From Squalus acanthias (lineage: Eukaryota): a stretch of DNA of 64,000 nucleotides. The stretch is from NCBI GenBank assembly GCA_030390025.1, contig CM059431.1, forward strand, positions 109,742,001 through 109,806,000, written 5' to 3'. Positions 3,886 through 62,439 of the stretch are shown piece by piece (position 1 is the first letter of the stretch; each line of letters starts with the position of its first letter). The notes under the pieces are model-generated. The model had not been told where the DNA came from. It saw nothing but the letters and a program-made list of their open reading frames with translations, and searched no databases. A program made the position numbers and the translations under genes.

Positions 3886-3990
3886 ACGTTAACTCTGTTT
3901 CTCTCTCCACGGATGCTGCCTGGCCTGCTGAGTTTTTCCAGCGTTTTCTGTTGTTATTTTGGATTTCCAGCATCTGCAGTATTTTGCTAT
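3886..3990 (+). mobile_element. Penelope-derived tail fragment
   Basis: ACGTTAACTCTGTTTCTCTCTCCACGGATGCTGCCTGGCCTGCTGAG matches 62070-62116 and the right arm of the 29601-29836 element; hammerhead core absent. Confidence 0.75.
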
Positions 3991-9328: not shown

Positions 9329-9550
9329 TGTGGCGGATCGCCACCTAAACGGGCATAATCCACTCTTCCGTCCGTGGACAAATATCCAGCACCTTCCCTT
9401 TAAGGCAGGAGTGGGCGGGGCCTCAGGTTTTTCCCAGAGAATTCTGGGAGCTTTCTGTTCAGCCATTTTACCATGCAGTTGCATTAAAAAAGCCTTTTGT
9501 TTTCCACACATGGATTCAGCCTCCATTCGTGTTTCGCGGCAGCCTCAACA
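9329..9550 (+). repeat. 5' LTR (222 bp)
   Basis: TGTGGCGGATCGCCAC...GCCTCAACA; direct repeat of 13419-13656. Confidence 0.95.
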
Positions 9551-9551
9551 T

Positions 9552-9565
9552 TGGTGACCCCGACG
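9552..9565 (+). promoter_or_regulatory. Primer-binding site for tRNA-Trp
   Basis: TGGTGACCCCGACG 1 nt after the LTR; matches the first 14 nt of the known tRNA-Trp PBS (TGGTGACCCCGACGTGAT). Confidence 0.9.
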
Positions 9566-9590
9566 CTCAGAACGTATTCCGAGCACTGCA

Positions 9591-12500
9591 ATGGCGGACA
9601 CGAACGCAGTTTCCGTGAAACTGCCGGAGTTTTGGGAAAACTAGCCCGAAGCCTGGTTTCTCCAAGCTGAATCTCGCTTCGGCTGCGAAAGATCACCACA
9701 GATCGGAAACAGTATGACTACCTCGTCACATCACTCGGTAGCACCACAGTTTCCAAGGTTTGGACAGCGCTGCAGAACCCACCAGAGGAAGGCAAGTACG
9801 CACATCTCAAGACAGCGCTCCTTAAAAAATTACGGCCTCGGCATACCAGCGAAACTGCCACCTCCTCGACCTTCCAGGCCTCGGTGATGCCTCACCGTCA
9901 GACCTCCTCTCCCACATGCTCTCCCTCACCGACGAGAGCCCACCCGGATCCCTCTTCCGCACGCTGTTCATCCGCCAGCTCCCTCTCAGCATCCGCCTAG
10001 CGATCGTGGCGTCCGGCCTCACGAACCTGGAAGCCCTGGCCGATGAGGCCGACAAGCTGCTGTCCGCTCACTCCAGCCGCAACGTCACTCCGGACCTGGC
10101 AGCCAATGCCTGGGCGCGCCCCTCACCGGCCACCACGCAGCCACAAGGGCCTGCCACCAGGCCCACGGGGCCTTCACGCCCCAGTAACCCGGGCCACTGT
10201 TACTACCACGCACGGTTCGGCGCCAGGGCACAACGGTGCACACCTCCCTGCTCTTTCAAGTCCGCCCCCGTACCAGCTCCCGCGATGGCCGTGGGCCACG
10301 CGGGCTCCCTGCTGTTCGTCACGGATGACAAAACCGGCCGCCGGTTCCTGTGCGACACTGGGGCTCAGCACAGCATCATCCCGGCCTCCTCCCTCGACAT
10401 CCAAAAGGGCGAACGAGGACCGGCGCTGGCTGCTGCTAACAGCTCAGAGATCCGGACGTATGGCACCCGGACAGTCACCCTCGACCTCGCTGGTCGCCGC
10501 TACCGATGGGAGTTCATCACTGCCAAGGTGCTCTCCCCTCTCATCGGTGCAGATTTCCTGTGCGCCCACGGCCTACTGGTAGACATCCCCCGTCACCGCC
10601 TCATGGACATGAACACCATGTCCCCCATCCTGGGCGCCATGGCCCCCCGTCAACCCGCCGACATGGCGTCACAGTGCCACGCCCGGGCCACGGATGACTA
10701 CTCGGCACTCCTGGCCGAATTCCCGGCCCTTACCAATCCGACCTTCTCCGCGGAGGCCGCCAAACACGGGGTGGAACACTTCATCCCCACCACAGGCCCC
10801 CCAGTGTACGCCCATGCCCGCAGGCTGGACCCGACCAAACTGGAGATCGCGCGGACCGAGTTTGCCACCATGGAACAGCTCGGCATCATCCGCCGCTCCA
10901 ACAGTCCCTGGGCCTCCCCACTCCACATCGCCCCCAAACCAGGCGGAGGTTGGCGCCCCTGCGGGGATTACCGCCGCCTCAACGATGCCACCACCCCTGA
11001 TCGGTACCCCGTGCCGCACATTCAGGACTTCTCGGCTAGACTGGCCGGCCGTTCAGTCTTTTCCAAGGTCGACCTGGTGCGCGGCTACCACCAAGACCCG
11101 TCCACCCCGCGGACGTCCCCAAGACGGCCGTAATCACCCCCTTCGGCCTGTTCGAGTTCCTGCGGATGCCCTTCGGCCTCAAAAACGCGGCCCAGGCATT
11201 CCAACGGCTCATGGACTCGGTCCTTCGGGACCTGAAGTTCCTGTTCGTCTACCTGGACGGCATCCTGGTAGCCAGTTCCTCCAAGCAGGAACACCTCGAA
11301 CACCTTCGCATCCTGTTCGGGCGCCTCAGCGACCACGGGCTCATCCTCAGCCCAGCCAAATGCCAGTTCGGCCTGGACAAGATCGACTTCCTCGGCCACC
11401 ACATCACCCATGCTGGGGCCATTCCCCTGCCCACCAAGGTGCAGGCCGTCCAACAATTCCCCGCCCCACCACCATCAAAGGCCTCCAGGAGTTACTCGGG
11501 ATGGTGAATTTCTATAACCGCTGCATCCCCAAAGCGGCGTCCCTCATGAGGCCCCTGTATGAAGCCCTCCAGGGCAGGAGCGGCAAGATGGCGGTCGAAT
11601 GGACGGCAGACGCGTCCGCCGCCTTCGACTCCACCAAGACAGCGCTCGCCAATGCCACCCTGCTCGCGCACCCACGGCCCAATGCCAGGGTAGCGCTCAC
11701 CACGGACGCCTCCGACCACGCGGTCGGCGCCGTGTATGAGCAGTGGGTCGACGGCGCCTGGCAACCACTTGCCTTCTTCAGCCGCCAACTACGCTCCCGG
11801 AGGTCAAGTACAGCACCTTCGACCGCAAGCTCCTCGCGCTGTTCCTGGCGGTCCGCCATTTCCGGTTTTTGCTTGAGGGCCACCCCTTCACTGCGTTTGT
11901 CGACCACAAGCCCCTGACATTTGCAATGGCAAAGACAACCGACCCCTGGTCCGCCAGGCAGCAGCGCCAGCTCGCGGCAGTGTCCGAGTTCACCACGGAC
12001 ATCCAACACGTCTCCGGCCGAGACAATGTGGTAGCCGACTGCCTCTCCCGCCCCGCCATCCACGCCGCACACCTGGCAGTCGACTACGCTCAACTTGCAG
12101 CAGACCAGATCACCGACCCTGATCTGTTCTCCGCACCCACCAACCTACCAGGGCTACGCCTGGCCGACGTCGCCTGTGGCCCGACCGCAGTCACGGTCAA
12201 GTGCGACATATCCCTATGTCAACCTCGGCCCGTCGTCCCAGCGTCCTGGCGCCGCCGGGTATTCGACATTCTCCACAACCTCTCCCACCCCGGCGCCCGT
12301 GCATCCATCAAATTGTTAGCCAACCGCTTCGTCTGGCGCGGCCTTCGCAAGGATGTGCGCACTTGGGCCAACTCCTGCCTAGCCTGCCAACGGGCCAAGG
12401 TACAGCAACACACGAAAGCACCCCTCGAGGAGTTTACCGTACCCTCGCGGAGATTCGACCACATCCACGTGGACATCGTCGGGCCCCTGCCGCCGTCGCA

Positions 12501-13398
12501 AGGCCACACGCACTTGCTGACCATCGTTGACCACACCACATGCTGGCCCGAGGCAATTCCACTGACCTCTACCACCACCGCCGACATCGCCAGAGCCTTC
12601 GTCAGCACCTGGGTCGCACGGTTCGGCATCCCCTCCGACATGACATCGGACAGAGGTCCGCAATTTACCTCTGAACTCTGGACCGCCGTCGCACGCAATC
12701 TCGGGGTGACCATTCACCGCACCACAGCGTACCACCCCCAAGCCAACGGACTGTGTGAGCGGTTCCACAGATCCTTGAAGGCATCTCTTCGAGCCAGCCT
12801 CCAGGACGGCGCCTGGACCGACCGACTTCCGTGGGTCCTCCTCGGTCTGCGCACCGCGGTTAAAGAAGACCTCCACGCATCGGCAGCAGAGCTCGTGCAC
12901 GGTCAGCCGCTGCGCGTACCCGGCGAGTTCCTGCCCACCGCCACGACACCCTGGTCAGCCGACCAGCAACGCCACGACTTCGCCTCACCGGCGCTGCAGT
13001 TCGCCCCGGTGCCCATTGCCCGACACGGCGAATCCACCTCACATGTCCCACTAAGCCTGCACCAGGCACGGTTTGTTTTCATCTGGCACGACGCCCACCG
13101 CGGACCCCTTCAGCCCCTGTACGACGGGCCCTACAAGGTGCTACAGGCTGGGGACAAATTTTTCACCCTGCAAGTGGGCGACAGGACCGAAAAAGTGTCG
13201 GTTGACCGACTCAAGCCAGCACACTCGGAGCCCGGTGAGCAGGTCCCTGTAGCTCGTCCACCTCCACGCGGCCGACCTGCCCTCAAGTCGGTTCACCCGG
13301 CTGCTCCACGCCCGGCCGTTCCACGTCCACCGGCATCCTCCAAGAGCCGCTCCGGCCGGCCCATCAGACCGCCGCACCGTCTCGTCCACACCTCCTAA
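9591..13398 (+). pseudogene. Disrupted gag-pol polyprotein (Gag with CHCC knuckle, aspartic protease, RT, RNase H, integrase)
   Basis: MADTNAVSVKLPEFW start with TAG at 9642-9644; CX2HX9CX3C at 10198-10251; protease LCDTGA; RT WASPLH/CGDYRRLN/MPFGLKNA with YLDD changed to YLDG (11250-11261); RNase H TDAS; integrase H..SH..C..C, HVD/SDRG/CER triad and GPY motif; frameshifts near 9685, 9830-9840, 11095, 11460, 11795. Confidence 0.93.
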
Positions 13399-13407
13399 GC
13401 GGATTCT

Positions 13408-13415
13408 GGGGGGAG
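13408..13415 (+). promoter_or_regulatory. Polypurine tract
   Basis: GGGGGGAG just upstream of the 3' LTR. Confidence 0.8.
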
Positions 13416-13418
13416 CTG

Positions 13419-13656
13419 TGTGGCGGATCGCCACCTAAACGGGCATAATCCACTCTTCCGTCCGTGGACAAATATCCAGCACCTTCCCTTTAAGGCACCT
13501 TACCTTTAAGGCAGGAGTGGGCGGGGCCTCAGGTTTTTCCCAGAGAATTCTGGGAGCTTTCTGTTCAGCCATTTTACCATGCAGTTGCATTAAAAAAGCC
13601 TTTTGTTTTCCACACATGGATTCAGCCTTAATTCGTGTTTCGCGGCAGCCTCAACA
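13419..13656 (+). repeat. 3' LTR (238 bp)
   Basis: Same as the 5' LTR except a 16-nt duplication-like insert (ACCTTACCTTTAAGGC) and CC>TA near the 3' end. Confidence 0.95.
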
Positions 13657-13714
13657 TGCTTCTACATGTCTGTATGTTACAATTGGATTCGTTACCTGTT
13701 TTGTGATTGGCGCT

Positions 13715-24482: not shown

Positions 24483-24957
24483 GTCAGCTGTGGCTCAGTG
24501 GGTAGCACCCTCATGTTCTGAATCAGTAATGGTTGTGGGTTCAAGTCCCACTCTCAGAGACTTGAGCACAAAAATCTAGGCTGACATTCCAGTCCAGAAC
24601 TGAGGGAGTGCTGCACTGTCAGAGGTGCCGTCTTTCAGATGAGATGTTAGACTGAGGCTCCATCTGCTCACTCAGGTGGACGTAAAAGATCCCAGGGCAC
24701 TATTTTGAAGAAGAGCAGGGGAGTTCTCCCCAGTGTCCTGGCCAATATTTATCCCTCAATCAACATAACAAAAAACGATTATCTTGTCTTTATCATATTG
24801 CTGTTTGTGGGATCTTGCTGTGTTCAAGTTGGCTGCCGCATTTCCGACATTACAACAGTGACTACACTTCAAAAGTACTTCATTGGCTGTAAAGCACTTT
24901 GGGACGTCTGGTGGTTGTGAAAGGCGCTATATAAATGCAAGTCTTTCTTTTTTCTTT
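24483..24957 (+). mobile_element. DeuSINE, full length
   Basis: A/B boxes, Deu core, tail. Confidence 0.88.
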
Positions 24958-25278
24958 CTCAGGGCACGTATAACACAAGTTCAGTACATCATAAAACTCC
25001 ACTTTACTGTGTTCCCCACACCAGCATGATATATCATTTTTTAATAGGAAATTTGAAATGAAAAGTTACATTTTTGAACCAAATATGGATTATTTCTTCT
25101 GGAAACTAATTCAAAATCGATTGTGCAAACTGGGAAAAATTACTTTTCATTGAAATCTTTTGACTTTTTAGGGTAAAACTTCCTGCTATGGGAGACCCTG
25201 CTGACCTATCTTGTAAAGCTATTCCGGTCAGGACTTTTGGGCTTGCAACTAATTATATAAACACAACGAGCTTCTATC

Positions 25279-26020
25279 CACACAACTGGCTACCTACAGG
25301 AGCTAGCACACCTCTGGTTCTCTATGCAGGAGTCCTCCCCTTTTCCATTGGGGATTTGGCGTGGAGAGTGTTGCACAGAGCAGTACCGTGCAATAAATTT
25401 TTAAGCAGGTTCACGGACTCCCAGGCTGCCTGTAACCTGCGGCCTGAATGAGTCCGTGTTTCATGTATATGTGGAGTGTGAGAGGTTGCAGCCCCATTCT
25501 GCTATTTGAAAGGGCTGTTCCTCAATTTTTGGCTGCACTTCAGTCCCACGCTCCTGATCTTTGGCCAGCCGGCGCGGAGGGGAGCGGGCAAGTCGGAGGA
25601 CCTCCTCGTAGGACTGCTCCGGGGCCTGGCCAAGGTGGCCATCAACAGGTCCAGGCAGCGGGCAGTCAAAGGGGTCGTTCGGCCCGACCGCCTGCATCTC
25701 TTCTGTGGCTATGTTCATGCCCGGGAGTCCCTGGAGAGGGAGCATGCAGTGTCTACTGGTACGCTTGAGACCTTGAGTGACCTGTGGGCACCGGAGGGAC
25801 TGGAGTGCATCCCTGGGACCAAATTTTAATTTAATTTGTAAAGTTTCATTTAAAATTGGTTTAATTTAGTTTATTGGTTGTGCCCCTTTAAGAAGGGGGC
25901 ACTTGTTAACTCTCATTGTTGATGACGATTGTCATCCTAATTGGTAATTGAAGAGTGAGCACACCTCTGGCTACGTACAGGAGCTAGCACACAGCTGATT
26001 ACCTACATGAGCGAGCACAC
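25279..26020 (+). repeat. ~28-bp degenerate tandem repeat interrupted by the Tx1-like insertion
   Basis: Units CACAC-NN-CTGGCTACCTACAGGAGCTAG at 25279, 25307/25960 (split) and 25988, partial at 26016. Confidence 0.7.
25318..25957 (+). mobile_element. Tx1/L1-group non-LTR retrotransposon 3' end
   Basis: GDLAWRVLHRAVPCN...AACNL..(E)SVFHVYVEC zinc-knuckle-like region then FWLHFSPTLLIFG...LAKVAI; T-rich 3' UTR; 13-bp TSD AGCACACCTCTGG (25305-25317, 25958-25970). Confidence 0.8.
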
Positions 26021-26100
26021 GGAGTCGAATCTCATCACACTGCTGCAGTAATTTGAAGGGCTGCAGCAATTTGAACGGCTGCATTGTCGGTTCAGCAGGG

Positions 26101-26567
26101 AAAAAAGAAAGACTTGCATTTCTATAGCACCTTTCACAACTTCAAGAGGTCCCAAAGCGCTTTACAGCCAATGAAGTACTTTTTGGAAGTGTTGTCACTG
26201 TTGTAATGTAGGAAATGCGGCAGCCAATTTGCACACAGCAAGATCCCACAAACAGCAATGTGATAATGACCAGATAATCTGTTTTTGTTATGTGATGTTG
26301 GTTGAGGGATAAATATTGGCCAGGACACTGGAGATAACTCCCCTGCTCTTCTTCGAAATAAGGCTTCGGGATCTTTTACGTCCACCTGAGAGAGCAGACG
26401 GGGCCTCAGTTTAATGTCTTATTCAAAAGGCGGCACCTCCGACAGTGCAGCATTCCTCAGCACTGTACTGGAGTGACAGCCAAGATTTTTGTGCTCATGT
26501 CTTTGGAGTGGGACTTGAACCCACAACCTTCTGACTCAGAGGAGGTAGTGCTAGCGCTGAGCCACGG
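26101..26567 (-). mobile_element. DeuSINE
   Basis: Reverse-complement family match. Confidence 0.87.
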
Positions 26568-26750: not shown

Positions 26751-27170
26751 AAAAAAGAAAGACTTGCATTTTTATACAGCGCCTTTCACGGCCACCGGAC
26801 GTCTCAAAGCACTTTACAGCCAATGAAGTACTACTTGAAGTGTAGTCACTGTTGTAGTGTAGGAAACGCAGCAGCCAATTTGCACACAGCAAGCTCCCAC
26901 AAACAGCAATGTGATAATGACCAGATCATCTGTTTTTGTTATGTTGGTTGGGGGGAAAATATTGGTCAGGACACCGGGGATAACTCCCCCTGCTCTTCAA
27001 AAATAGTGCCATGGGATCTTTTTCATCCACTTGAGAGAGCAGATGGGGCCTCAGTTTAACGTATCATCCCAAAGACGCAACCTCTGACAGTGCAGCACTC
27101 CCTCAGTACTTAAACCCACAACCTTCTGACTCAGAGGCGAGAGTGCTACCCACTGAGCCACAGCTGACAC
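26751..27170 (-). mobile_element. DeuSINE with internal deletion
   Basis: Reverse-complement family match. Confidence 0.85.
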
Positions 27171-27649
27171 TTGAGGTGGGCCATCAAGAGGTCAAATGCT
27201 GCGTCCAACGTCTGGAGCACATTCATCAAAATGAGAAAGAAGATGGCAGATCTGGGGAAAGCCGCCAAAGTGAAGTTGGCCAACAGTTTCTTTTACTGTG
27301 TCTCAGGGAGCTGAGGCACTTTAATAGGAATCTGGCCAGTCTAACACATATTCAGATGAGTGCGACTGATAAACAAATTTTATTTGCCACTGAAATAATT
27401 GTATCCAGTTGGTCACACCATCAAAACCATCCACAAAGACTGATGGAAAATAGACATTTTCACAACAAACTAAAATTCACAGATATTTAACATTACCTAA
27501 AAATGATTTCCATGTTTAGAGAGACAAAATATAATGGTCTGAACAAAATTAACACAAATTATAATACTTTCCAAAGACAATAAATAAAATGGGTCTTACC
27601 TATGTAAACCCAACAAAAAGACTGATGTATCAGACTAGAGGGTGGATTT

Positions 27650-27808
27650 AGAATCATAGAATGGTTACAGCACAGAAGGAGGCTATTCAGCTCGTCGAGC
27701 CCGTGCCGGCTCTCTCTGCAAGAGCACTTCAGCTAGTCCCACTCCCCCGCCCTTTCCCCGTAGCCCTGCAAATTTTTTTCCTTCAGGTACTTATCCAATT
27801 CCCTTTTA
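27650..27808 (-). mobile_element. CR1 3' end fragment
   Basis: TAGAATCATAGAATGGTTACAGCACAG tail; matches 41422-41590. Confidence 0.8.
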
Positions 27809-28599
27809 TAGGAAGAAAATAAATGCTCCACTTTATGTACCGTGTCTGAATGGAAGATTTTGTCTATAGTCCATTCCTGCTTACTTGTTCTGATGGTACA
27901 ATTCTTCCAGGAGTTTGATCTTTTAAGTTAACCCTAACTCTGCTGTTCTTGCTTTTGCATTCAAGTGAACATCAATATATGTGAATGAGAAATTCAACTA
28001 TCTCAATCACTCAGAACACATCACAAATTAAACAAGCCATTTCTTTTCCTCTTTCTATAGAATTTCAAATGCAAGGTTTCACTTGTCACATTGACAGATA
28101 TCCCAAGTGTCCATGCCACAAAATGTTCACACTTTCACTGCTACCCCATGCAAAGTACTCAGACAACCTTACAGTTCTTTGAATGCTTACCACGCATCCA
28201 TGCACAGCCATATTACAGCAGGGTGCACATTCAAGCTGTATCTCTTGCTATATTGACATCTTAAAAAGGGCTACACACCAAAACCCTTCTAACAAAACCC
28301 AGCCACATGATGCATCTTTACTGATTTATAAACACAGTGCAAGATGGTCACTTGGGTGCCACTCTATGTGTTCTTGAAACTCCCAACTTCTCAACATTAC
28401 TTTCTGCTGGACAAGATGGCTCATAATAGGAGGAAGCAGACTCACGTGGAAGGACGGCCCGTGACTACATTCAAATAGGTCCTAAGGGACATTATTGATG
28501 TTGAGAGCACTGTAGTGGAGGAGGATGGAGTCAGAGACAAAGCTCGGCGCCAGAAGGAATAAAGACAAAAAAATACCCTACTATCTTTACCAACCCGTG

Positions 28600-29008
28600 G
28601 GTCCCACTCCAGGGATTTGAGCAGACAAATCTAGGCTGACACTCCAGTGCAGTACTGAAGGAGTTCTGCACTGTCGGAGGTGCCGTCTTTCGGATGAGAC
28701 GTTAAAGCAAGGCCCCGTCTGCTCTCCCAGGTGGACGTAAAAGATCCCTTGGCACTATTTCGAAGAAGAGCAGGGGAGTTATCCCCGGTGTCCTGGCCAA
28801 TATTTATCCCCAACCAACATCACTAAAACAGATTATCTGGTCATTATCACAGTGCTGTTTGTGGGAGCTTGCTGTGCGCAAATTGGCTGCCGCGTTTCCC
28901 ACATTACAACAGTGACTATACTCCAAAAAGTACTTCATTGGCTGTAAAGCGCTTTGGGATGCCCGGTGGTCGTGAAAGGCGCTATATAAATGCAAGTGTT
29001 TCTTTCTT
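28600..29008 (+). mobile_element. DeuSINE, head truncated
   Basis: Family match. Confidence 0.87.
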
Positions 29009-29698
29009 TAACTGAGCCAATAGGGCGTTCTAAACAATTTAATCTCATTGTCAAAGTGATGTTAAGAGGAAATGGGCCCTAAATGACTCTTAAGCATTTA
29101 GGAAAGATGCCAATGTCAACAACAACCCCCCAAAATTGCACAACCAGACATGTATTAAAGAATTGTGGCAAATGACTTTTCAGCCCGTCTATTAAGGTAA
29201 TTTATTTTTTTAAACTTTCTATTGACAACTTATTTGATTTCCACTTGGCTTTGAGAAACTTGCCCAAGTTTCAGGCATGTATCAGATAACTTGTGTCTCT
29301 TCCCTCATGTTATAAGAAAAGCTGTATATGTGCAAGGTTGAAACAAGGAATCACCTCTATTTCTGCACCATTTCAGTCAAAATGTATGGTATTTGTAATA
29401 ACAAGGAACTTCTATCTCCTCATCTTTTAGGTCAATATATGTAGTGCAGATTGTACTGGAAAGCCACCCTTGTCACTGGCCAGTTATATTCCAAAAGTAC
29501 AGTGCGTTCTGTATGGAAAAATCGACCATAATTAAGTTCAAAATGTATATTGTACTAGTTAGGGTCATCTCAATAACTGAACTAACAAGTAGTTACTGAA
29601 CAAAAAGAAAATACCGCAGATGCTGGAAATCTGAAATAAAAACAGAAAATGCTGGAGATACTCAGCAGGTCAGGCAGCATCTGTGAAGAGAGAAACAG

Positions 29699-29735
29699 AG
29701 TTAACGTTTCAAGTCGATGACCTTTCGTCAGAACT
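29699..29735 (-). ncRNA. Minimal type I hammerhead ribozyme motif, minus strand
   Basis: AGTT-CTGACGA-A-AGGTC-ATC-GACTT-GAAA-CG-TT-AACT; the single arm mismatch gives a G-U wobble in stem II. Confidence 0.75.
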
Positions 29736-29771
29736 GTTCTGACGAAAGGTCATCGACCTGAAACGTTAACT
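29736..29771 (+). ncRNA. Minimal type I hammerhead ribozyme motif (Penelope type)
   Basis: GTT-CTGACGA-A-AGGTC-ATC-GACCT-GAAA-CG-TT-AAC: catalytic core, 5-bp stem II, palindromic ACGT in place of stem III, short stem I. Confidence 0.75.
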
Positions 29772-30597
29772 CTGTTTCTCTCTTCACAGATGCTGCCTGA
29801 CCTGCTGAGTATCTCCAGCATTTTCTGTTTTTATATAAGTAGTTACTGAAACTTTAGCTTGGGAACTATTTGCAAGTCCCTTTCCAAAATTAGAACTTTT
29901 TCAGATTTTGTGAGATGCAGTCTATATGAAACTGCCCTAAAGATGTTGTGATCAATTACGTTCCCTGTGATCTAATGCTGCAGGAATCAGATGACATTTT
30001 CTCACCTAAATTACATTACACAAATTCAAACAGCGATCAAACATCAGTTTCATGCATCAGAGGGGTACAGGAATCAGCATATATTCAGCATTACTCAGGA
30101 TGACCCACATAACTTGTCCTTTTATAACGTTCAGTGTTGTAATGGAGTGTGGTTAATTGAACATGGGCAGTTTATATAGTTGTCTCTTGTGATAACTTCA
30201 TGTTGTCATAATTACATTATAATCACAATATTAAAAAGGGCTATTTGTGAAGAAAGCATTCCAGACAGTTGCTTTTAAATTAGATTACACAGTGGAGATA
30301 TTCAAAGAGCTATTTAGTGGAAAATGCACATGACCTTAGTAAGGACATCAAATACGATGGAGTTGATTTATGATTAGATAGCAAAGTGTCACATGTCTAA
30401 AGAGCAAAATAAACGTCTTTGAAAATTACATTTGTACATTTGTAATCAAGTAACAAGTAGCTCAACCAGAAAAAACCAGAGCCGCAGCTTCCAGACATTT
30501 TAAATGCCACAGCTTAACATACTTGGCGAGGTTGTGCATTTTTGAACCATAAATTAAAGTTATGACGTAAATGCAAGATCTTGCTGATTACATCTAA

Positions 30598-30733
30598 AAA
30601 GCAAAATAAAACGGCAAAGACTGGAAATCTAAAAAGAAAAATAGCAAACTCTGAAAATACACACCTGGCTAGTCAGCATCTGGAGAGAGACAAGACAGAT
30701 CGATAGTTTGGGTGGAACTCTATTTCAGAACTA
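30598..30733 (-). mobile_element. Old degenerate copy of the Penelope-derived tail
   Basis: CTGGAAATCTAAAAAGAAAATAGCAAACTCTG...CAGCATCTGGAGAGAGAC...TCAGAACT parallels the left arm at 29601-29734. Confidence 0.55.
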
Positions 30734-30794
30734 AAAATATGAAAGGTAAACACGCACATTAATAGAATCAGAAAGGAAAGAGACAGGGAGAGGA

Positions 30795-31155
30795 ATTTTT
30801 TTTTTATTCGTTTGTGGGATGTGGGCGTCGCTGGCAAGGCCACCATTTATTGCCCATCCCTAATTTGCCCTCGAGAAGGTGGTGGTGAGCCGCCTTCTTG
30901 AACCGCCGCAGTCTGTGTGGTGAAGATACTGCCACAGTGCTGTTAAGGGAGGGAGTTCCAGGATTTTGACCCAGCGACAATGAAGGATCAGCGATAAACT
31001 TCTAAGTCAGGATGGTGTGTGACTTGCAGGGGAACTTAGAGGTGGTGGTGTTCCCATGCGCCTGCTGCCCTTGTCCTTCTAGGTGGAAGAGGTCGCGGGT
31101 TTGGGAGGTGCTGCCGAAGAAGCCTTGGCGAGTTGCTGCAGTGCATCCTGTAGAT
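30795..31155 (-). mobile_element. CR1-group (Zenon-like) LINE 3' fragment
   Basis: Closely matches 13715-14070. Confidence 0.85.
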
Positions 31156-31653
31156 GCTACAGATATAACAGATACTCCAATCACTCGTTCAGGAAGGGAG
31201 GCTCTGTGTATCTAAGAGTTCTATACCTGAGCTGGGTACCCAGAATGAAAAGTGTTTTGTTCTGTAGCACTAACATCCTTCACGCTGATGAACTTCAAAT
31301 TCACACCAAAATAAAAGTCGTAAAACGTATTCAAGGACTCTACAATGTAAACGTTTTTGAAATTTATTTTATTTGAAAATTAAACAAGAATATTAAAAAT
31401 GTCAGGAATGAGAAAAAGTCATTGGACCAATTGAAATTCTTCTCTGTAGTACATTGACACTCCTATTGTGACATATAATTTTGATCGACCCCAATGTTTT
31501 TGCTCTTAACTTGATCGGCAGCTAATTCCCAACACCTATCAAACTTTGATATTTCTTTTAAAATTGCCTTTCACCAATTTCCACTTACAGCCTCTTGACT
31601 TACTTTGAAGCAACAGAGATTATTGCTTTGAAGTTTACCATTTAATATTCTAC

Positions 31654-32877
31654 GGGGGAGAAATTCAGTATCGCCCCATTTGGGGCGCAATTATCGGCCG
31701 GGCGCAAAGTTTAGCGCCTGGCGCTAATTATCGCCTCCGACTGCAAACTTGGCTTCTATCGCCCCTGGAGGTGATTGAAGCGCTCTATCAGGTGCTACAC
31801 ACCTCTCTTAAGGCGCTACGGCCAAGGAGCGAGGCGCTACCTCAGAGCGCTGGCGAACCTAATGTGATGTCAGTCAGCAATGGAACACAGACACACTGGC
31901 GCCGGCCAGTTCTTAAAGGGGAGGGTCGATCTTGCTCTCCATCCACATCCTGCTCATTGCAGCCTTGAATCTCGGCCTGGAGAGACCTGTACATCAAATC
32001 TGCTGGAAAGAACAATGGAGAGGCCCAGGGAAAGAGCTCAGAGTGCAACCCCCAAAGTCTCTTCTAAATTGATGCAAGGAAGGTCAAATCAAAATGAACC
32101 TGCAAAGTGCTACTCAGTACCCAAAACTCCTTCACACAGCGTTGAATCTCTCCAGAAGTCTCTCTCTCTCTCTCAGAATGCGTGGTGCAAAAATGTCGCC
32201 GACAAAAAAAGGCAGGAAGCGGCCGCCTTTAAATAGCACTCCCCCAGTCCCTTCCCAACTGCAAAACGCTCCCCTCAACCTGTTGTTCCTAGCGGCAGGC
32301 GGTAAGGCAGGGGCGTCACTCAATATCCGGTCCGGGGCGTTGCACGCTCGACTGACATCACTGCAGGTCTCCCTCCCCTGATTAAAGGGGAGGGGCCTAG
32401 TGCAGCCCTGCTGGACCACCGGGGAGCGGGGTGCCGGCAAAAGAGCTCGGCACTCAAGACTCAAGAGGAGTGCCGTGCTGACCGATCGCGGCCGGCACCC
32501 CGCAGGAGGAGGCCAGAGGGGGCAGGTGCTGGCAGGCGGCCCCAAAAAAATGGCTGCCCGGCACCTGCCCTTTAATTATCACCGCCCCGGCCACAAAAAC
32601 GCCCCCCTGACCCTGTCGGACATAACGTCCGGCGGTAGGTCAGGGGGCGCGAGCTAAGTTTGCGGCCGGGGTGTGAGTGGGGCGCTGTGCACGGCGGTGA
32701 CGTCATTGCTGTAGGCGCAGCGCCGTGGGACGCTATCGGCTACCGCCGCTGCTAATCTCCCGCTGAATTTCGTGGGAGGCGTTAGCAGCGTCACGCCCGG
32801 GCATTAATTGCTTTGTGCCACATTAGCACCCCCTCTGGGCGCTAACGGGAGGCGCAAAGCAACCAAATTTTTCCCCC
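31654..32877. mobile_element. PIF/Harbinger-type non-autonomous element
   Basis: TIRs GGGGGAGAAATT...AATTTTTCCCCC; flanks TAC/TAA; homologous to 58108-58906; CpG-rich. Confidence 0.8.
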
Positions 32878-33480: not shown

Positions 33481-33678
33481 AAATGCTGGAAACTCACAGC
33501 TGGTCAATCAACATCTGTAAAGAGAAAAGACATGTTAACATTTTGGGTCATTATCCTTCATCAGAACTGAAAACTTCTCTTAATGTTAACTTGTCCTTCC
33601 ATTTACAAATACTGACTGCGGATTTCCAACATCTCCAGTGTTGTTTTAGATTTCCGGCATTTGCAGTTTTTCTGCTTC
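33481..33678. mobile_element. Old degenerate palindromic Penelope-derived mini-element
   Basis: Left arm ATGCTGGAAACTCACAGC...GTTAAC...CCTTCATCAGAACT and right arm GTTAAC...GATTTCCGGCATTTGCAG. Confidence 0.6.
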
Positions 33679-34704: not shown

Positions 34705-37355
34705 AGCAAATAATATAAAAACAGACAGTTAGAGCTTCTACAGGTATATAAAAAGGAAGAGAGTAGCTAAAGTAAATGTTGGTCCCTTAGAGGATGAGAC
34801 TGGGGAATTAATAATGGGAAATAGAGAAATGGCAGAGACTCTAAACAATTATTTTGGATCAGTCTTCACGGTAGAAGACTGCTAAAAACATCCCAATAAT
34901 AATAGATAATCAAGGGGCTATAGGGAGGGAGGAACTTAAAACAATCTCTATCACTAGAGAAAAAGTATTAGGCAAACTAATGGGGCTAAAGACCGACAAG
35001 TCCCCTGGACCTGATGGCCTGCATCCTAGGGTCTTAAAAGAAGTGGCTGCAGAGATAATGGATGCGTTGGTTGTAATCTACCAAAATTCCCTGCATTCTG
35101 GAGAGGTCCCAGCGATTGGAAAACCGCAAATGTAACGCCACTATTCAAGAAAGGAGGGAGACAGAAAGCAGGAAACTATAGGCCAGTTAGCCTAACATCT
35201 GTCATTGGGAAAATGCTGGAATCCATTATTAAGGAGGACATTTAGAAAAACATAAGTCAATCAAGCAGAGTCAACATGGTTTTATGAAAGGGAAATCGTG
35301 TTTGACAAATTTACTCGAGTTCTTTGAGGATGTAACAAACAGGGTGGATAAAGGGAAGCAGTAGATGTAGTGTATTTGGAATTCCAGAAGGCATTCGATA
35401 AGGTGCCACATAAAAGATTACTGCACAAGATAAGAGCGCACAGGGTTGGGGGTGATATATTGGCATGGATAGGCGATTGGCTAACTAACAGAAAACAGAG
35501 AGTCGGGATAAATGGGTAATTTTCCGGTTGGCAACCAGTAACTAGTGGGGTGCCACAGGGATCAGTGCTGGGGGGCCTCAACTATTTACAATCTATGTTA
35601 ATGACTTGGATGAAGGGACCGAGTGTACTGTAGCCAAATTTGCTGATGATACAAAGATAGGTGGGTTAGCAAGATGTGAGGAGGACACAAAGAGCTGGAT
35701 TTTGTCTTGGGGTCGGGTTGGGGTCGTGTAATCCGCATTTCGTGTTTCCCCCCCGACTCCAGATTAATGTGGATGAATGATGCAATTTTCACTTAATTGG
35801 GCAATTGAGTTCCAGCATGTGGGAACCCATGAACCAATTAATGGTTTCAGTCTGAAAGTCGCCTCTGATGATGTCATCATTGCTGACTGCCTAGTCTCAG
35901 AGACTGTTGGTGAGAGAGGACCTGCCTGGCTTGCTTTTGATGTGAGTGGACCTGGATGCAAAATATGGGGGGGGGGGAGAGAGAGAGAGAGAGAGAGAGA
36001 GAATTTTTTTTGCATCCAAGTCCTCTCACAGCAAAGGCCAGGCAGTCTCTGAACACATTCAATGCAGCAGCGGCGACTTTCAGACCTAATACTACTACTA
36101 CCTTCATCACATCTCCATTGTAATAGTGGACCTGCAGCTGATAGTCAGCTGTCCACTTGTGCTCCCGCCAGGTTTCACTGGCGTGTTTCACACCAGGCGT
36201 ACTTCACGTCAGAAAAGGGTTAAACTAGCTAAAACGTTTCAAGATGGCATTACAGAGCCAATTTAGAGCTTGTTAAGGGCTTTAATGGCCTCTCCCACCT
36301 CTTGGAGGCGGGACGGAGTCGGGAACCCCGCGACTGATTTTGTCAAAATTGCGTGGAGGCGGGATGGAGTCGGGATGGGGTCGGAAACCCCGACCCCACA
36401 AATTTAACCCCCCACACGCCTCTAAACCCGACTCCATGGGTCATTCAAAATCCAGCCCAAAGAGTCTGCAAACGGATATAGATAGGTTAAGTGAGTGGGC
36501 AAAAATTTGGCAGATGGAGTATAATGTGGGAAAATGTGAGGTTATCCACTTTGGAAGGAAGAATGAAAAAGCAAATTATTATTTAAATGGAGTGAGACTA
36601 CAAAATGTTGCAGTACAAAGTGATCTGGGGATCCTAGTAAATGAAACACAAAAAGTTAGCATGCAGGTACAGCAAGTAATTAGGAAGGCAAATGGAATGT
36701 TGGCCTTTATTGCAAGGGGTATGGAGTATAAAAGTAGGGAAGTTTTGATACAACTTTACAGGGCGCTGGTGAGACCGCACCTGGAGTACTGCGTACAGTT
36801 TTGGTCTCCATATTTAAGGAGGGATATACTTGCATTGGAGGCAGTGCAGAGAAGGTTCACTAGGTTGATTCCTGGGATGAAGGGGTTGACGTATGATGAA
36901 AGGTTGAGCAGGTTGGGCCTATACTCATTGGAGTTTAGAAGAATGAGAGGTGATCTTATTGAAACATATAAGATTCTGAGGGGGATTGACAGGGTGGATG
37001 CTGAGAGAATGTTTCCCCTAGTGGGGGTATCTAGAACCAGGGGGCATAGTTTCAGAATAAGGGGTCGCACATTTAAGATGGAGATGAGGAGGAATTTCTT
37101 CTCTCAGAGGGTCGTGAATGTTTGCAATTCTCTACCCCAGAGAGCTGTGGAGGCGGAGTCATTAAATATATTCAAGGCGGAGATTGACAGACATTTGAAC
37201 TACAAGGGAGTCAAGGGGTATGGGGAGAGAGTGGGAAAGTGGTGTTGAGGCCAGGATTGGATCAGCCATGATCTTATTGAATGGCGGAGCAGGCTCGAGG
37301 GTCCGATTGGCCAACTCCTGCTCCTCTTTCTTATGTTCTCTTATGTTCTTATGTT
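34705..37355 (+). mobile_element. CR1/HER1 LINE ORF2 (RT) 3' portion interrupted by a MITE
   Basis: KSPGPDGLHPRVLK, GVPQGSVL, FADDTK RT motifs; continues after 36459 as SLQTDIDRLSEWA...[13 protein letters not shown]...; tail repeats at ~37330-37355. Confidence 0.92.
35692..36458. mobile_element. PIF/Harbinger-type MITE nested in CR1
   Basis: TIRs GAGCTGGATTTTG...CAAAATCCAGCCC; 3-bp TSD AAA; removing it restores the CR1 sequence GAGGACACAAAGAGTCTG. Confidence 0.87.
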
Positions 37356-38049
37356 CTGACTCAGAGACGAACATGCTACGAGCTGAGCAAAGCTGACACA
37401 AGCAGTTCGCTGGTACATCAACAATCCTATGCCAGGTTCCACATTTGCTGATCAAAATTCCAGAGCAGTGACATACCACTGAATTATATAACGCATAGCT
37501 GCATGACATCATGTCACAGGACTAGACTAGATTGCCTGGTGTTTTTTCATCTCCCAACATCAACCAAACCACAAAATTCTAACCAAAGCCCTCACTTATG
37601 CATGACACAGATGACAGCATGTTGGAAGATGACAGTGAAAATTGTTTATCATTTTCTGGAATGTTGTAACATTCTTTCCACTTCTTTCTCCCCTCCGCCC
37701 ACCCCCACCCCCCCATCTTTTCTTGGGTTTGGGGGCATCAGCAATGTCCGAGATGTTTGGAGTGCATTTACCAGCGGCTCTTCAAAGGAATGTTAATACG
37801 CAGGGCGCTTGGAGCTATAGTTAGAACATGAACAGTCTCACAGTGAAATCTGCTTTTCTGTCTCAGTCACTGCTCGTTGTGCTCCAGTCACGCCTGACTT
37901 GCAATGTTTTATTTAACATCTGGAAAGTCAATTGCAATCAGCGCAAATCTTTGTTCTTAAAAAGAAACAGCACTCTAAGTCGACTGCATTAGGAAAGTTA
38001 TACAAGACGGGTGCAGTTGATTTTGTTCTGTCCCTATATTACAAGATGT

Positions 38050-39205
38050 CATAGAAACATAGAAAACATAGAAAAATAGGAGCAGGAGTAGGCCATTCGG
38101 CCCTTCGAGCCTGCTCCGCCATTCAATATGATCATGGCTGATCCTCTATCTCAATACCATATTCCCGCTCTCTCCCCATACCCCTTGATGTCTTTTGTGT
38201 CTAGAAATCTATCTATTTCCTTCTTAAATATATTCAGTGACTTGGCCTCCACAGCCTTCTATGGTAGAGAATTCCACAGGTTCACCACCCTCTGAGTGAA
38301 GAAATTTCTCCTCATCTCAGTCCTAAATGTCCTACCCCATATCCTGAGACTGTGACCATTCGTTCTAGACCCCCCAGCCAGGGGAAACATCCTCCCTGCA
38401 TCCAGTCTGTCTAGCCCTGTCAGAATTTTATACGTTTCAATGAGATCCCCTCTCATTCTTCTAAACTCTAGTGAATACAGGCCTAGTCGACCCAATCTCT
38501 CCTCATATGACAGTCCTGCCATCCCAGGAATCAGTCTGGTGAGCCTTCGCTGCACTCCCTCTATGGCAAGTATATCCTTTCTTAGGTAAGGAGACCAAAA
38601 CTACACACAGTACTCCAGGTGTGGTCTCACCAAGGCCCTGTATAACTGTAGTAAGACATCCTTGCTCCTGTACTCAAATCCTCTTACAATGAAGGCCAAC
38701 ATACCATTTGCCTTCCTAACTGCCTGCTGCACCTGCATGTTTGCTTTCAGTGAATGGTGTACAAGGACACCCAGGTCCCTCTGTACATCAGCATTTCCCA
38801 ATCTATCACCGTTTAAATAATACTCTACCTTTCCGTTTTTCCTACTAACTTCACCTTTATCCACATTATACTGCATCTGCCATGTATTTGCCCATTCACT
38901 CAACTTGTCTAAATCGCCTTGAAGTCTCTTTGCATCCTCCTCACAACTCACAATCCCACCTAGTTTTGTGTCTTCAGCAAACTTGGAAATATTACATTTG
39001 GTTCCCTCATCCAAATCATTGATATATATTGTGAGTAGCTGGGGCCCAAGCACTGATCCCTGCGGTACCCCCACTAGTCACCGCTGCCACCCGGAAAAAG
39101 ACCCATTTATTCCTACTCTCTGTTTCCTGTCTGTTAACCAATTTTCAATCCATGCTAGTATATTACCCCCAATCCCATGTGCTTTAATTTTGCACACTAA
39201 CCTCT
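38050..39205 (-). mobile_element. CR1/HER1 LINE 3' fragment
   Basis: GVPQGSVLGP...FAEDTK...RPHLEYCV; CATAGAAA-type tail. Confidence 0.92.
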
Positions 39206-61977: not shown

Positions 61978-62041
61978 CCTCCCCTCCCCCTTTCGCTGCC
62001 TCTGCACCTGCTTAAAATCTGTTGCATTGCTAGCCTTTTCC

Positions 62042-62078
62042 AGTTCTGATGAAGGGTCCCAGACCTGAAACGTTAACT
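62042..62078 (+). ncRNA. Minimal hammerhead ribozyme motif in the Penelope 3' repeat
   Basis: AGTT-CTGATGA-A-GGGTC-CCA-GACCT-GAAA-CG-TT-AACT. Confidence 0.78.
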
Positions 62079-62439
62079 CTGTTTCTCTCTCCACGGATGC
62101 TGCCTGGCCTGCTGAGTGCTGCCAGCATTTTCTGTTGTTACCTATGATTATATTATTAGGAACTCAAATCAATTAGAAGCACACATCAATTCAGTTCACA
62201 AATTTGATATTCAATCTTATATCTTATGTAACCCATAAACTCAGCTGCTGAGGTACTCGAAGAGCTCATCGGTTGACTGGCCCAATAAAATGTACCCAAA
62301 GCTATTCACAAAATTGCAAAATAGGTTTTGAGGAAGAAGGCTCTTCAGCCCATTTGATACCATCCTTTGAAGACTAAACCTATTGGCTTCCTATGAATCC
62401 AGGCTGCAATACCTTTTTTCTCCATTACATTACAACAAT

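Follow-up and report, generated by a model that had tools for sequence, protein, structure and literature searches.

A 236-bp palindromic unit with two opposed hammerhead motifs in Squalus acanthias: probable one-off insertion of a Penelope-like element with an inverted end

Does a 236-bp palindromic unit carrying one hammerhead motif on each strand, located at 29601-29836 of a 64,000-nucleotide stretch of Squalus acanthias DNA (the window), belong to a family of hairpins that spreads as a unit, or was it built in a single insertion event? The analysis presented here favours the second answer. We consider it highly probable that the unit is a one-off, heavily 5'-truncated insertion of a Penelope-like element (PLE), made in trans, whose inverted end was probably generated by cDNA copy-back.

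Contigs of four public runs (X3, X5, X7 and X9; 40,086 to 75,916 contigs aligned per run) were aligned to positions 29150-30350 at 85% likeness. Run X3 represents organism A and is possibly the source sample, while run X9 represents organism D. The unit and its immediate borders are composed of the following parts:

29587-29600: left target duplication, 14 bp, AT-rich; exact repeat, present in the left piece of X9 contig 25
29601-29635, minus strand: one-sided extension of 35 nt, on one arm only; matches the PLE "tail" (distal 3' end)
29636-29734, minus strand: long arm, representing the 3' part of a presumed PLE terminal repeat (pLTR); the hammerhead sense is that of the minus strand
29603-29734, minus strand: open frame of 44 codons; weak by itself, no family match
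29735: spacer of 1 nt (T) at the inversion centre
29736-29834, plus strand: short arm; an inverted, tailless copy whose end lies no more than 2 nt from the proximal 3' end of the family
29835-29836: two additional bases, separating the short arm from the right target duplication
29837-29850: right target duplication, 14 bp; exact repeat, right junction without differences in X3 contig 8

Over 99 nt, the mirror arms (29636-29734 and 29736-29834) pair at every position except one (29712/29758), a mismatch situated 23 nt off the centre. This alignment confirms the 99-bp arms, the single mismatch and the 1-nt spacer claimed in the preliminary description of the locus. Its term "236-bp palindromic" is correct as to the length of the unit, but the palindrome covers only 199 of the 236 bp because of the one-sided 35-nt extension on the left and the two extra nucleotides at the right end. 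In the predicted fold of the minus-strand hairpin, the tail remains outside the duplex. The arms overlap the family sequence by one base (G29736), and the match of the long arm to the upstream sequence of the family, represented by the upstream loose-end consensus, extends to 29736. Both arms carry the same two minority letters at positions where the family has a different majority letter (29657/29813 and 29686/29784; majority 84-88% of X3 depth), and it is therefore likely that they derive from one template or were homogenised.

The 14-bp direct repeat, AAGTAGTTACTGAA, is exact, cannot be extended and has no other occurrence in the 64-kb window. At the local base composition, the probability of such a repeat arising by chance is approximately 1e-8 per offset, or 5e-6 over 400 offset pairs. 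Both junctions of the unit are contained in run X3, the left one in contig 1 (with one difference) and the right one in contig 8. Contig 25 of run X9, of single-copy depth, matches the window in two blocks, 29229-29601 and 29882-30350; these are separated by 29 letters in the contig and by 280 in the window. The difference of 251 letters may be set against the 250 expected for the loss of the element plus one target copy. Since this contig from another organism lacks about 250 bp at the site, the direct repeat is a true target duplication, and the perfect 14-bp target site duplication (TSD) proposed earlier is upheld both by the exact repeat and by the empty site. The empty site was clear in one of the three other runs (X9); X5 gave no cover at the junction flanks, and in X7 the match of the right-flank contig stops at 29852, followed by 81 unplaced letters, which is compatible with an empty site. 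The earlier view that the unit is a product of retrotransposition rather than a MITE is likewise supported.

A Pfam scan of 124 open frames of at least 42 aa at 24.5-35.5 kb (the window has 748 in total) yielded one weak RVT_1 match (35352-35516) and no host exon around the insertion, and for this reason no host gene could be placed there. The wider neighbourhood contains several other repeats. A GC-rich (60-65%) LTR retrotransposon with long pol frames occupies 9329-13657; its terminal direct repeats (9329-9551 and 13419-13657) are 92% alike, and from its motifs we take it to be Gypsy-like. A common short repeat is present in two opposed copies at 24763-26293, parts of which are 82-92% complementary; it matches at least 11 further places in the window, one of them (28598-29014) just to the left of the focal unit. 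Two inverted LINE fragments, presumably CR1-like, are present at 36551-38848 (699 nt, 76% complementarity, 900 nt apart).

The arm itself is a very abundant repeat. Its summed depth amounted to 3e5-1e6 times the flank depth, a ratio which is not a copy number, and six loci in the window carry it; as an order of magnitude only, 10^5 copies may be assumed. In all four runs, loose ends of contigs formed piles at 29600 (225-492 contigs), 29608 (449-718) and 29634/29635 (234-454). The first two piles mark the long end, that at 29608 reflecting a one-base difference between the focal copy and the family, and the third marks the short end. The family has two such 3' ends, about 35 nt apart, and its copies are mostly variable at the 5' end with fixed 3' ends; in the focal unit, the end of the long arm coincides with the long-end site, and that of the short arm is no more than 2 nt away from the short-end site. 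The pile at 29736, where the mirror starts, was the largest in each run among the best 24 of 1637 loose ends. The contigs that depart from the reference at this position (796, 562, 789 and 892 in the four runs) have a common, non-mirror upstream consensus ending ...CTCTAACTTTTTCCA. The palindrome is not the normal form of the family.

Besides the focal unit, the following copies were identified in the window:

1437-1569 (with flanks 1425-1581): second head-to-head copy; exact 12-bp direct repeat, centre different from that of the focal unit
33481-33673: older inverted pair, separated by a spacer; roughly 70% identical to the focal arm, direct repeat not evident
62036-62140: single arm; intact minimal hammerhead, starting about 10 nt upstream of the core
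3886-3985: single arm, starting 5 nt upstream of the predicted cleavage site
30596-30740: single arm

In the copy at 1437-1569, the short arm (about 38 nt) ends just past the predicted cleavage site and the long arm has an internal deletion. Several of the copies in the window begin no more than about 11 nt from the core, and a truncation hot spot at this place is possible.

The junctions between arms also varied among the contigs. Nineteen distinct left-to-right junctions were counted among 27 joint rows (the best 15 of 949 and the best 12 of 696), a count which leaves out two opposite-strand and two backward rows. Where the letters between the two parts were known (the best 12 of 696), ten rows ran from left to right and represented nine distinct junctions. 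Joints ending at 29736/29737 or starting at 29656 are alignment limits and not true junctions. The centre of the focal unit was crossed by two other contigs, X3 record 7 (29660-29765) and X9 record 31 (29707-29819), each with fewer than 31 letters on one side. Joints at about 25-30 times the flank depth were also found (29707>29741 in X7, depth 347; 29699>29736 in X5, depth 305), and some junctions may therefore have been amplified. Left-to-right joints could, in addition, be later deletions across the centre of fixed hairpins.

These data allow us to weigh the possibility that the unit belongs to a non-autonomous, fixed-centre hairpin subfamily whose members would be transcribed and then re-inserted whole by a PLE acting in trans. 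The unit does retain both 3' end sites, with the tail outside the duplex of the minus-strand hairpin, and pLTR sequences of rotifer elements are described as sufficient for mobilisation in trans (PMC3846280). The two contigs crossing the same centre (both under the 31-letter rule), the copy at 1437-1569, which turns within a few nucleotides of the focal turning place, and the high depth of a few junction contigs point in the same direction. However, the largest pile among the loose ends listed runs into non-mirror sequence, the junctions are many and different, and the three head-to-head copies of the window differ from one another in centre, spacer and arm length. Moreover, the 99-bp duplex, with a predicted energy of about -187 kcal/mol, would make a poor template. 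We therefore consider this explanation improbable. The preliminary description, which had suggested a hairpin family propagating as a unit, regarded differing breakpoints between copies as the sign of one-off inversions, and this is largely what was found, both in the 19 junctions among the 27 rows listed and in the second hairpin of the window, with its other centre and arm length. A minor fixed-centre subfamily is possible. There is likewise little probability in a combined version, with a turn-back hot spot of the PLE reverse transcriptase (RT) just upstream of the core and re-mobilisation of some of the resulting 200-250-bp hairpins with both 3' start sites.

The two opposed ribozyme motifs of the unit are as follows:

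29699-29735, minus strand: minimal hammerhead; stem I of 4 bp, CUGACGA, extra A, stem II of 5 bp, GAAAC-GUU
29736-29770, plus strand: minimal hammerhead; same boxes, stem I of only 3 bp, shortened by the junction

The hammerhead cores begin 4 nt from the centre (29739 on the plus strand, 29731 on the minus strand), and the single mismatch between the arms results in one G-U pair in stem II of the minus-strand motif. According to hammerhead numbering, the minus-strand cut would fall between 29703 and 29702, and the plus-strand cut is predicted between 29767 and 29768. A descriptor composed after the motif had been seen (core boxes, stem II of at least 4 bp, stem I of at least 3 bp) matched the window three times, always within the focal repeat family; 60 simulated 64-kb first-order Markov sequences contained no match. 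Both motifs share with the metazoan PLE minimal hammerheads described by Cervera and De la Pena (2014, PMC4209133) the conserved core boxes, the absence of a helix III loop (loop 3), the palindromic positions 15.2/16.2, the extra base between 9 and 10.1, and a short helix I; the helix I length of 4-5 bp applies to the minus-strand motif (4 bp), the plus-strand motif having only 3 bp. The descriptor and this published description together bear out the claim of one minimal PLE-type hammerhead per strand. Rfam, which has no hammerhead model fitting these motifs, gave no hammerhead match in 27000-32500 at E<=5; the only matches there were to 23S-methyl, which were below the gathering score and were caused by the hairpin.

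The motifs also differ in some respects from those described in PMC4209133. The highly conserved G10.1-C11.1 pair, typical of these ribozymes and placed outside the published descriptor, is absent; stem II is closed by A-U in both focal motifs, and the copy at 62046 has G-U in this position. The stem is 5 bp long, and the focal cores start only 8 nt apart, whereas the dual minimal hammerheads on opposite strands noted in 2014 were separated by 100-700 bp (PMC4209133).

Each strand carries only one hammerhead core, and consequently the two motifs cannot dimerise within one transcript. Formation of stems I and II would cost 47-53 kcal/mol in the full hairpin, compared with 1.8-3.7 kcal/mol in an isolated arm, which agrees with the earlier prediction that a hairpin transcript sequesters the ribozymes. 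Read-through of either strand would produce the antisense arm first, and the ribozyme is predicted never to fold. Cofolding of two isolated motifs produced an extended duplex and no clear hammerhead dimer, with an energy model that does not score the core. No pile was present at the predicted cleavage site among the best 24 of 1637 loose ends. Minimal hammerheads are described as inactive as monomers and weak as dimers (PMC4209133), and the work of Lunse et al. (2016/2017) on dimer cleavage is cited in a review (PMC6765202). In the case of PAc, a Poseidon-type PLE of Anolis carolinensis, the ribozyme is described as cleaving only with protein present, and hammerhead cleavage as dispensable for insertion in vitro (PMC11167929). 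The two hammerheads are likely to be inert passengers of the focal unit.

A separate observation concerns the joint 29699>29736, found in X5 and X7, in which an arm starting exactly at the predicted cut is joined to the 5' strand of stem I via a 3-nt microhomology; one X5 contig accounts for the depth of 305. This joint could reflect a cleaved template or merely the complementarity of stem I.

The statement that the unit has no coding sequence was nearly right, the exception being the long arm, which in the hammerhead sense is an open frame of 44 codons. A search for longer relatives of the 44-aa frame found none. In a representative library the frame gave 16 matches at E<=1e-3, none of them with an RT or GIY-YIG domain; 15 of the 16 resemble stray translations of diverged repeat copies, and the remaining one belongs to a repetitive protein that is unrelated. 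The peptide of this frame occurs twice in a predicted PIP5K-like protein (P0007), which is probably a gene-model artefact or a case of exonisation. It was also observed that the arm includes two pyrimidine-rich stretches ending in CAG, which are splice-acceptor-like, and that other arm copies have an ATG inside the hammerhead core, an arrangement reminiscent of PAc, in which stem II marks the start of the ORF (PMC11167929). The comparison of the PAc ORF with the open hammerhead-sense frame of the focal unit is one of architecture, not of sequence.

Four architectural features of endonuclease-positive (EN+) PLE insertions were found at this locus: an AT-rich target site duplication (14 bp, with an empty site), a tail at one end only with two alternative 3' ends (in all four runs), an inverted 5'-truncated copy at the 5' end (in the focal unit, 1437-1569 and 33481-33673), and a minimal hammerhead in the terminal repeat. 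Membership of the PLEs is very likely, an identification based on architecture; the searches with the 44-aa frame found no RT/GIY-YIG gene tied to the arm. The EN+ PLE insertion units described by Arkhipova et al. (2013, PMC3846280), Craig et al. (2021, PMC8557442) and Schostak et al. (2008, PMC2377424) resemble the focal one in their head-to-head, inverted 5'-truncated end, their 30-40-nt tail at one end, the palindrome at the junction and the target duplication surrounding the whole unit. The focal unit differs in being only 236 bp long, with neither an ORF nor a second direct pLTR, and its 14-bp duplication is longer than the 8-10-bp TSDs described for the inverted-pLTR units of rotifer PLEs (PMC3846280).

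PAc offers a further parallel, since its hammerhead lies about 100-135 nt upstream of two tail-defining 3' ends and its target is AT-rich, as in the focal unit (PMC11167929). The inverted 5'-truncated copy and the one-sided tail of 30-40 bp are set out in PMC8557442, and the earlier statement that PLEs often have inverted terminal copies corresponds to a published feature (PMC3846280, PMC8557442). Inverted end copies, tails, TSDs and opposite-strand hammerhead pairs are therefore already published features of PLEs. A literature search that did not extend to Repbase, Dfam and most subscription journals brought up no study dealing specifically with short palindromic stumps of PLEs in sharks, and the repeat family may already be catalogued in repeat databases. 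Exact-pattern scans of viral and metagenome contigs and of prokaryote genomes, collections not expected to hold such DNA, found no copies of the family.

How could such an insertion have been produced? All of the enzymatic steps proposed here are inferred. A PLE RT/GIY-YIG protein would nick both strands of the AT-rich target, 14 nt apart, and cDNA synthesis would be primed at the distal start site (the end of the tail) and would stop about 5 nt upstream of the hammerhead core. Copy-back of the nascent cDNA on itself would follow and would account for the near-perfect centre and the identity of the arms; resolution at the proximal end site would leave the copied arm without a tail. Gap filling would finally create the 14-bp duplication. 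The hairpin would be rebuilt anew at each insertion, and would not itself spread.

Several published observations are related to these steps. PAc cuts and extends both target strands, and two RT start sites define the PLE tail (Frangieh et al. 2024, PMC11167929). Self-priming was inferred from junction palindromes by Arkhipova et al. (2013, PMC3846280), and endonuclease resolution has been suggested for the tail (PMC8557442). Within our preferred reading, copy-back is reasonably probable, because a centre symmetric to one base would be expected from it, while two cDNAs truncated independently should seldom end at an identical position. Priming a second time at the other nick, followed by end-joining of two cDNAs, is the more doubtful route. 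The short arm, ending at the proximal family end, would fit either endonuclease resolution at this site or second priming. A loop of 1 nt is tighter than a simple priming hairpin would allow, and the copy-back step would therefore require slippage or trimming.

Short inverted duplications are known to arise via template switching, and a single-arm PLE insertion might have been made palindromic later, by host repair or a replication template switch. Such an event is in keeping with the 99% identity of the arms and their common minority variants, yet it would not be expected to respect both the 3' end site and the target copies; the inverted arm ends at the second 3' end of the family, the whole unit lies between the target copies, and head-to-head pairs recur. 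We consider this origin very unlikely. A MITE or other derivative of a DNA transposon with a captured hammerhead-like sequence is hardly credible, and MITE identity is largely refuted: the unit is a short, non-coding inverted repeat flanked by a direct repeat, but MITEs are defined by terminal inverted repeats at both ends and by uniform size and TSD length, whereas here a 35-nt overhang keeps the inverted repeats from being terminal, the direct repeat varies by copy (14 and 12 bp), and the family copies are of variable length, mostly differing at the 5' end with fixed 3' ends.

Identification as a non-LTR retrozyme was also rejected. These elements (Li, Clavereau, Pollet 2026, preprint, 10.64898/2026.07.22.740005) are, like the focal unit, non-coding and PLE-related and carry a type I hammerhead, and they are reported in the one chondrichthyan sampled in that work. 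They are, however, described as head-to-tail tandems with two ribozymes on the same strand (at least two same-strand hammerheads), whereas the focal unit is arranged head to head, with one core per strand. Unlike the retrozymes, it cannot release a monomer.

To conclude, the one-off PLE insertion identified in this study is a clean, small example of a known PLE insertion anatomy, accompanied by an empty site in another species. The way in which PLEs make inverted ends and tails is still an open question (PMC8557442, PMC11167929), and the very large number of such stumps in one genome allows copy-back and two-ended priming to be weighed against each other statistically. If a fixed-centre hairpin did spread as a unit, it would represent a new sort of non-autonomous, MITE-like retroelement, and a genome-wide source of dsRNA, with 99 bp of dsRNA formed wherever a copy was read through. 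As far as genome annotation is concerned, palindromes of this kind should not be filed as MITEs.
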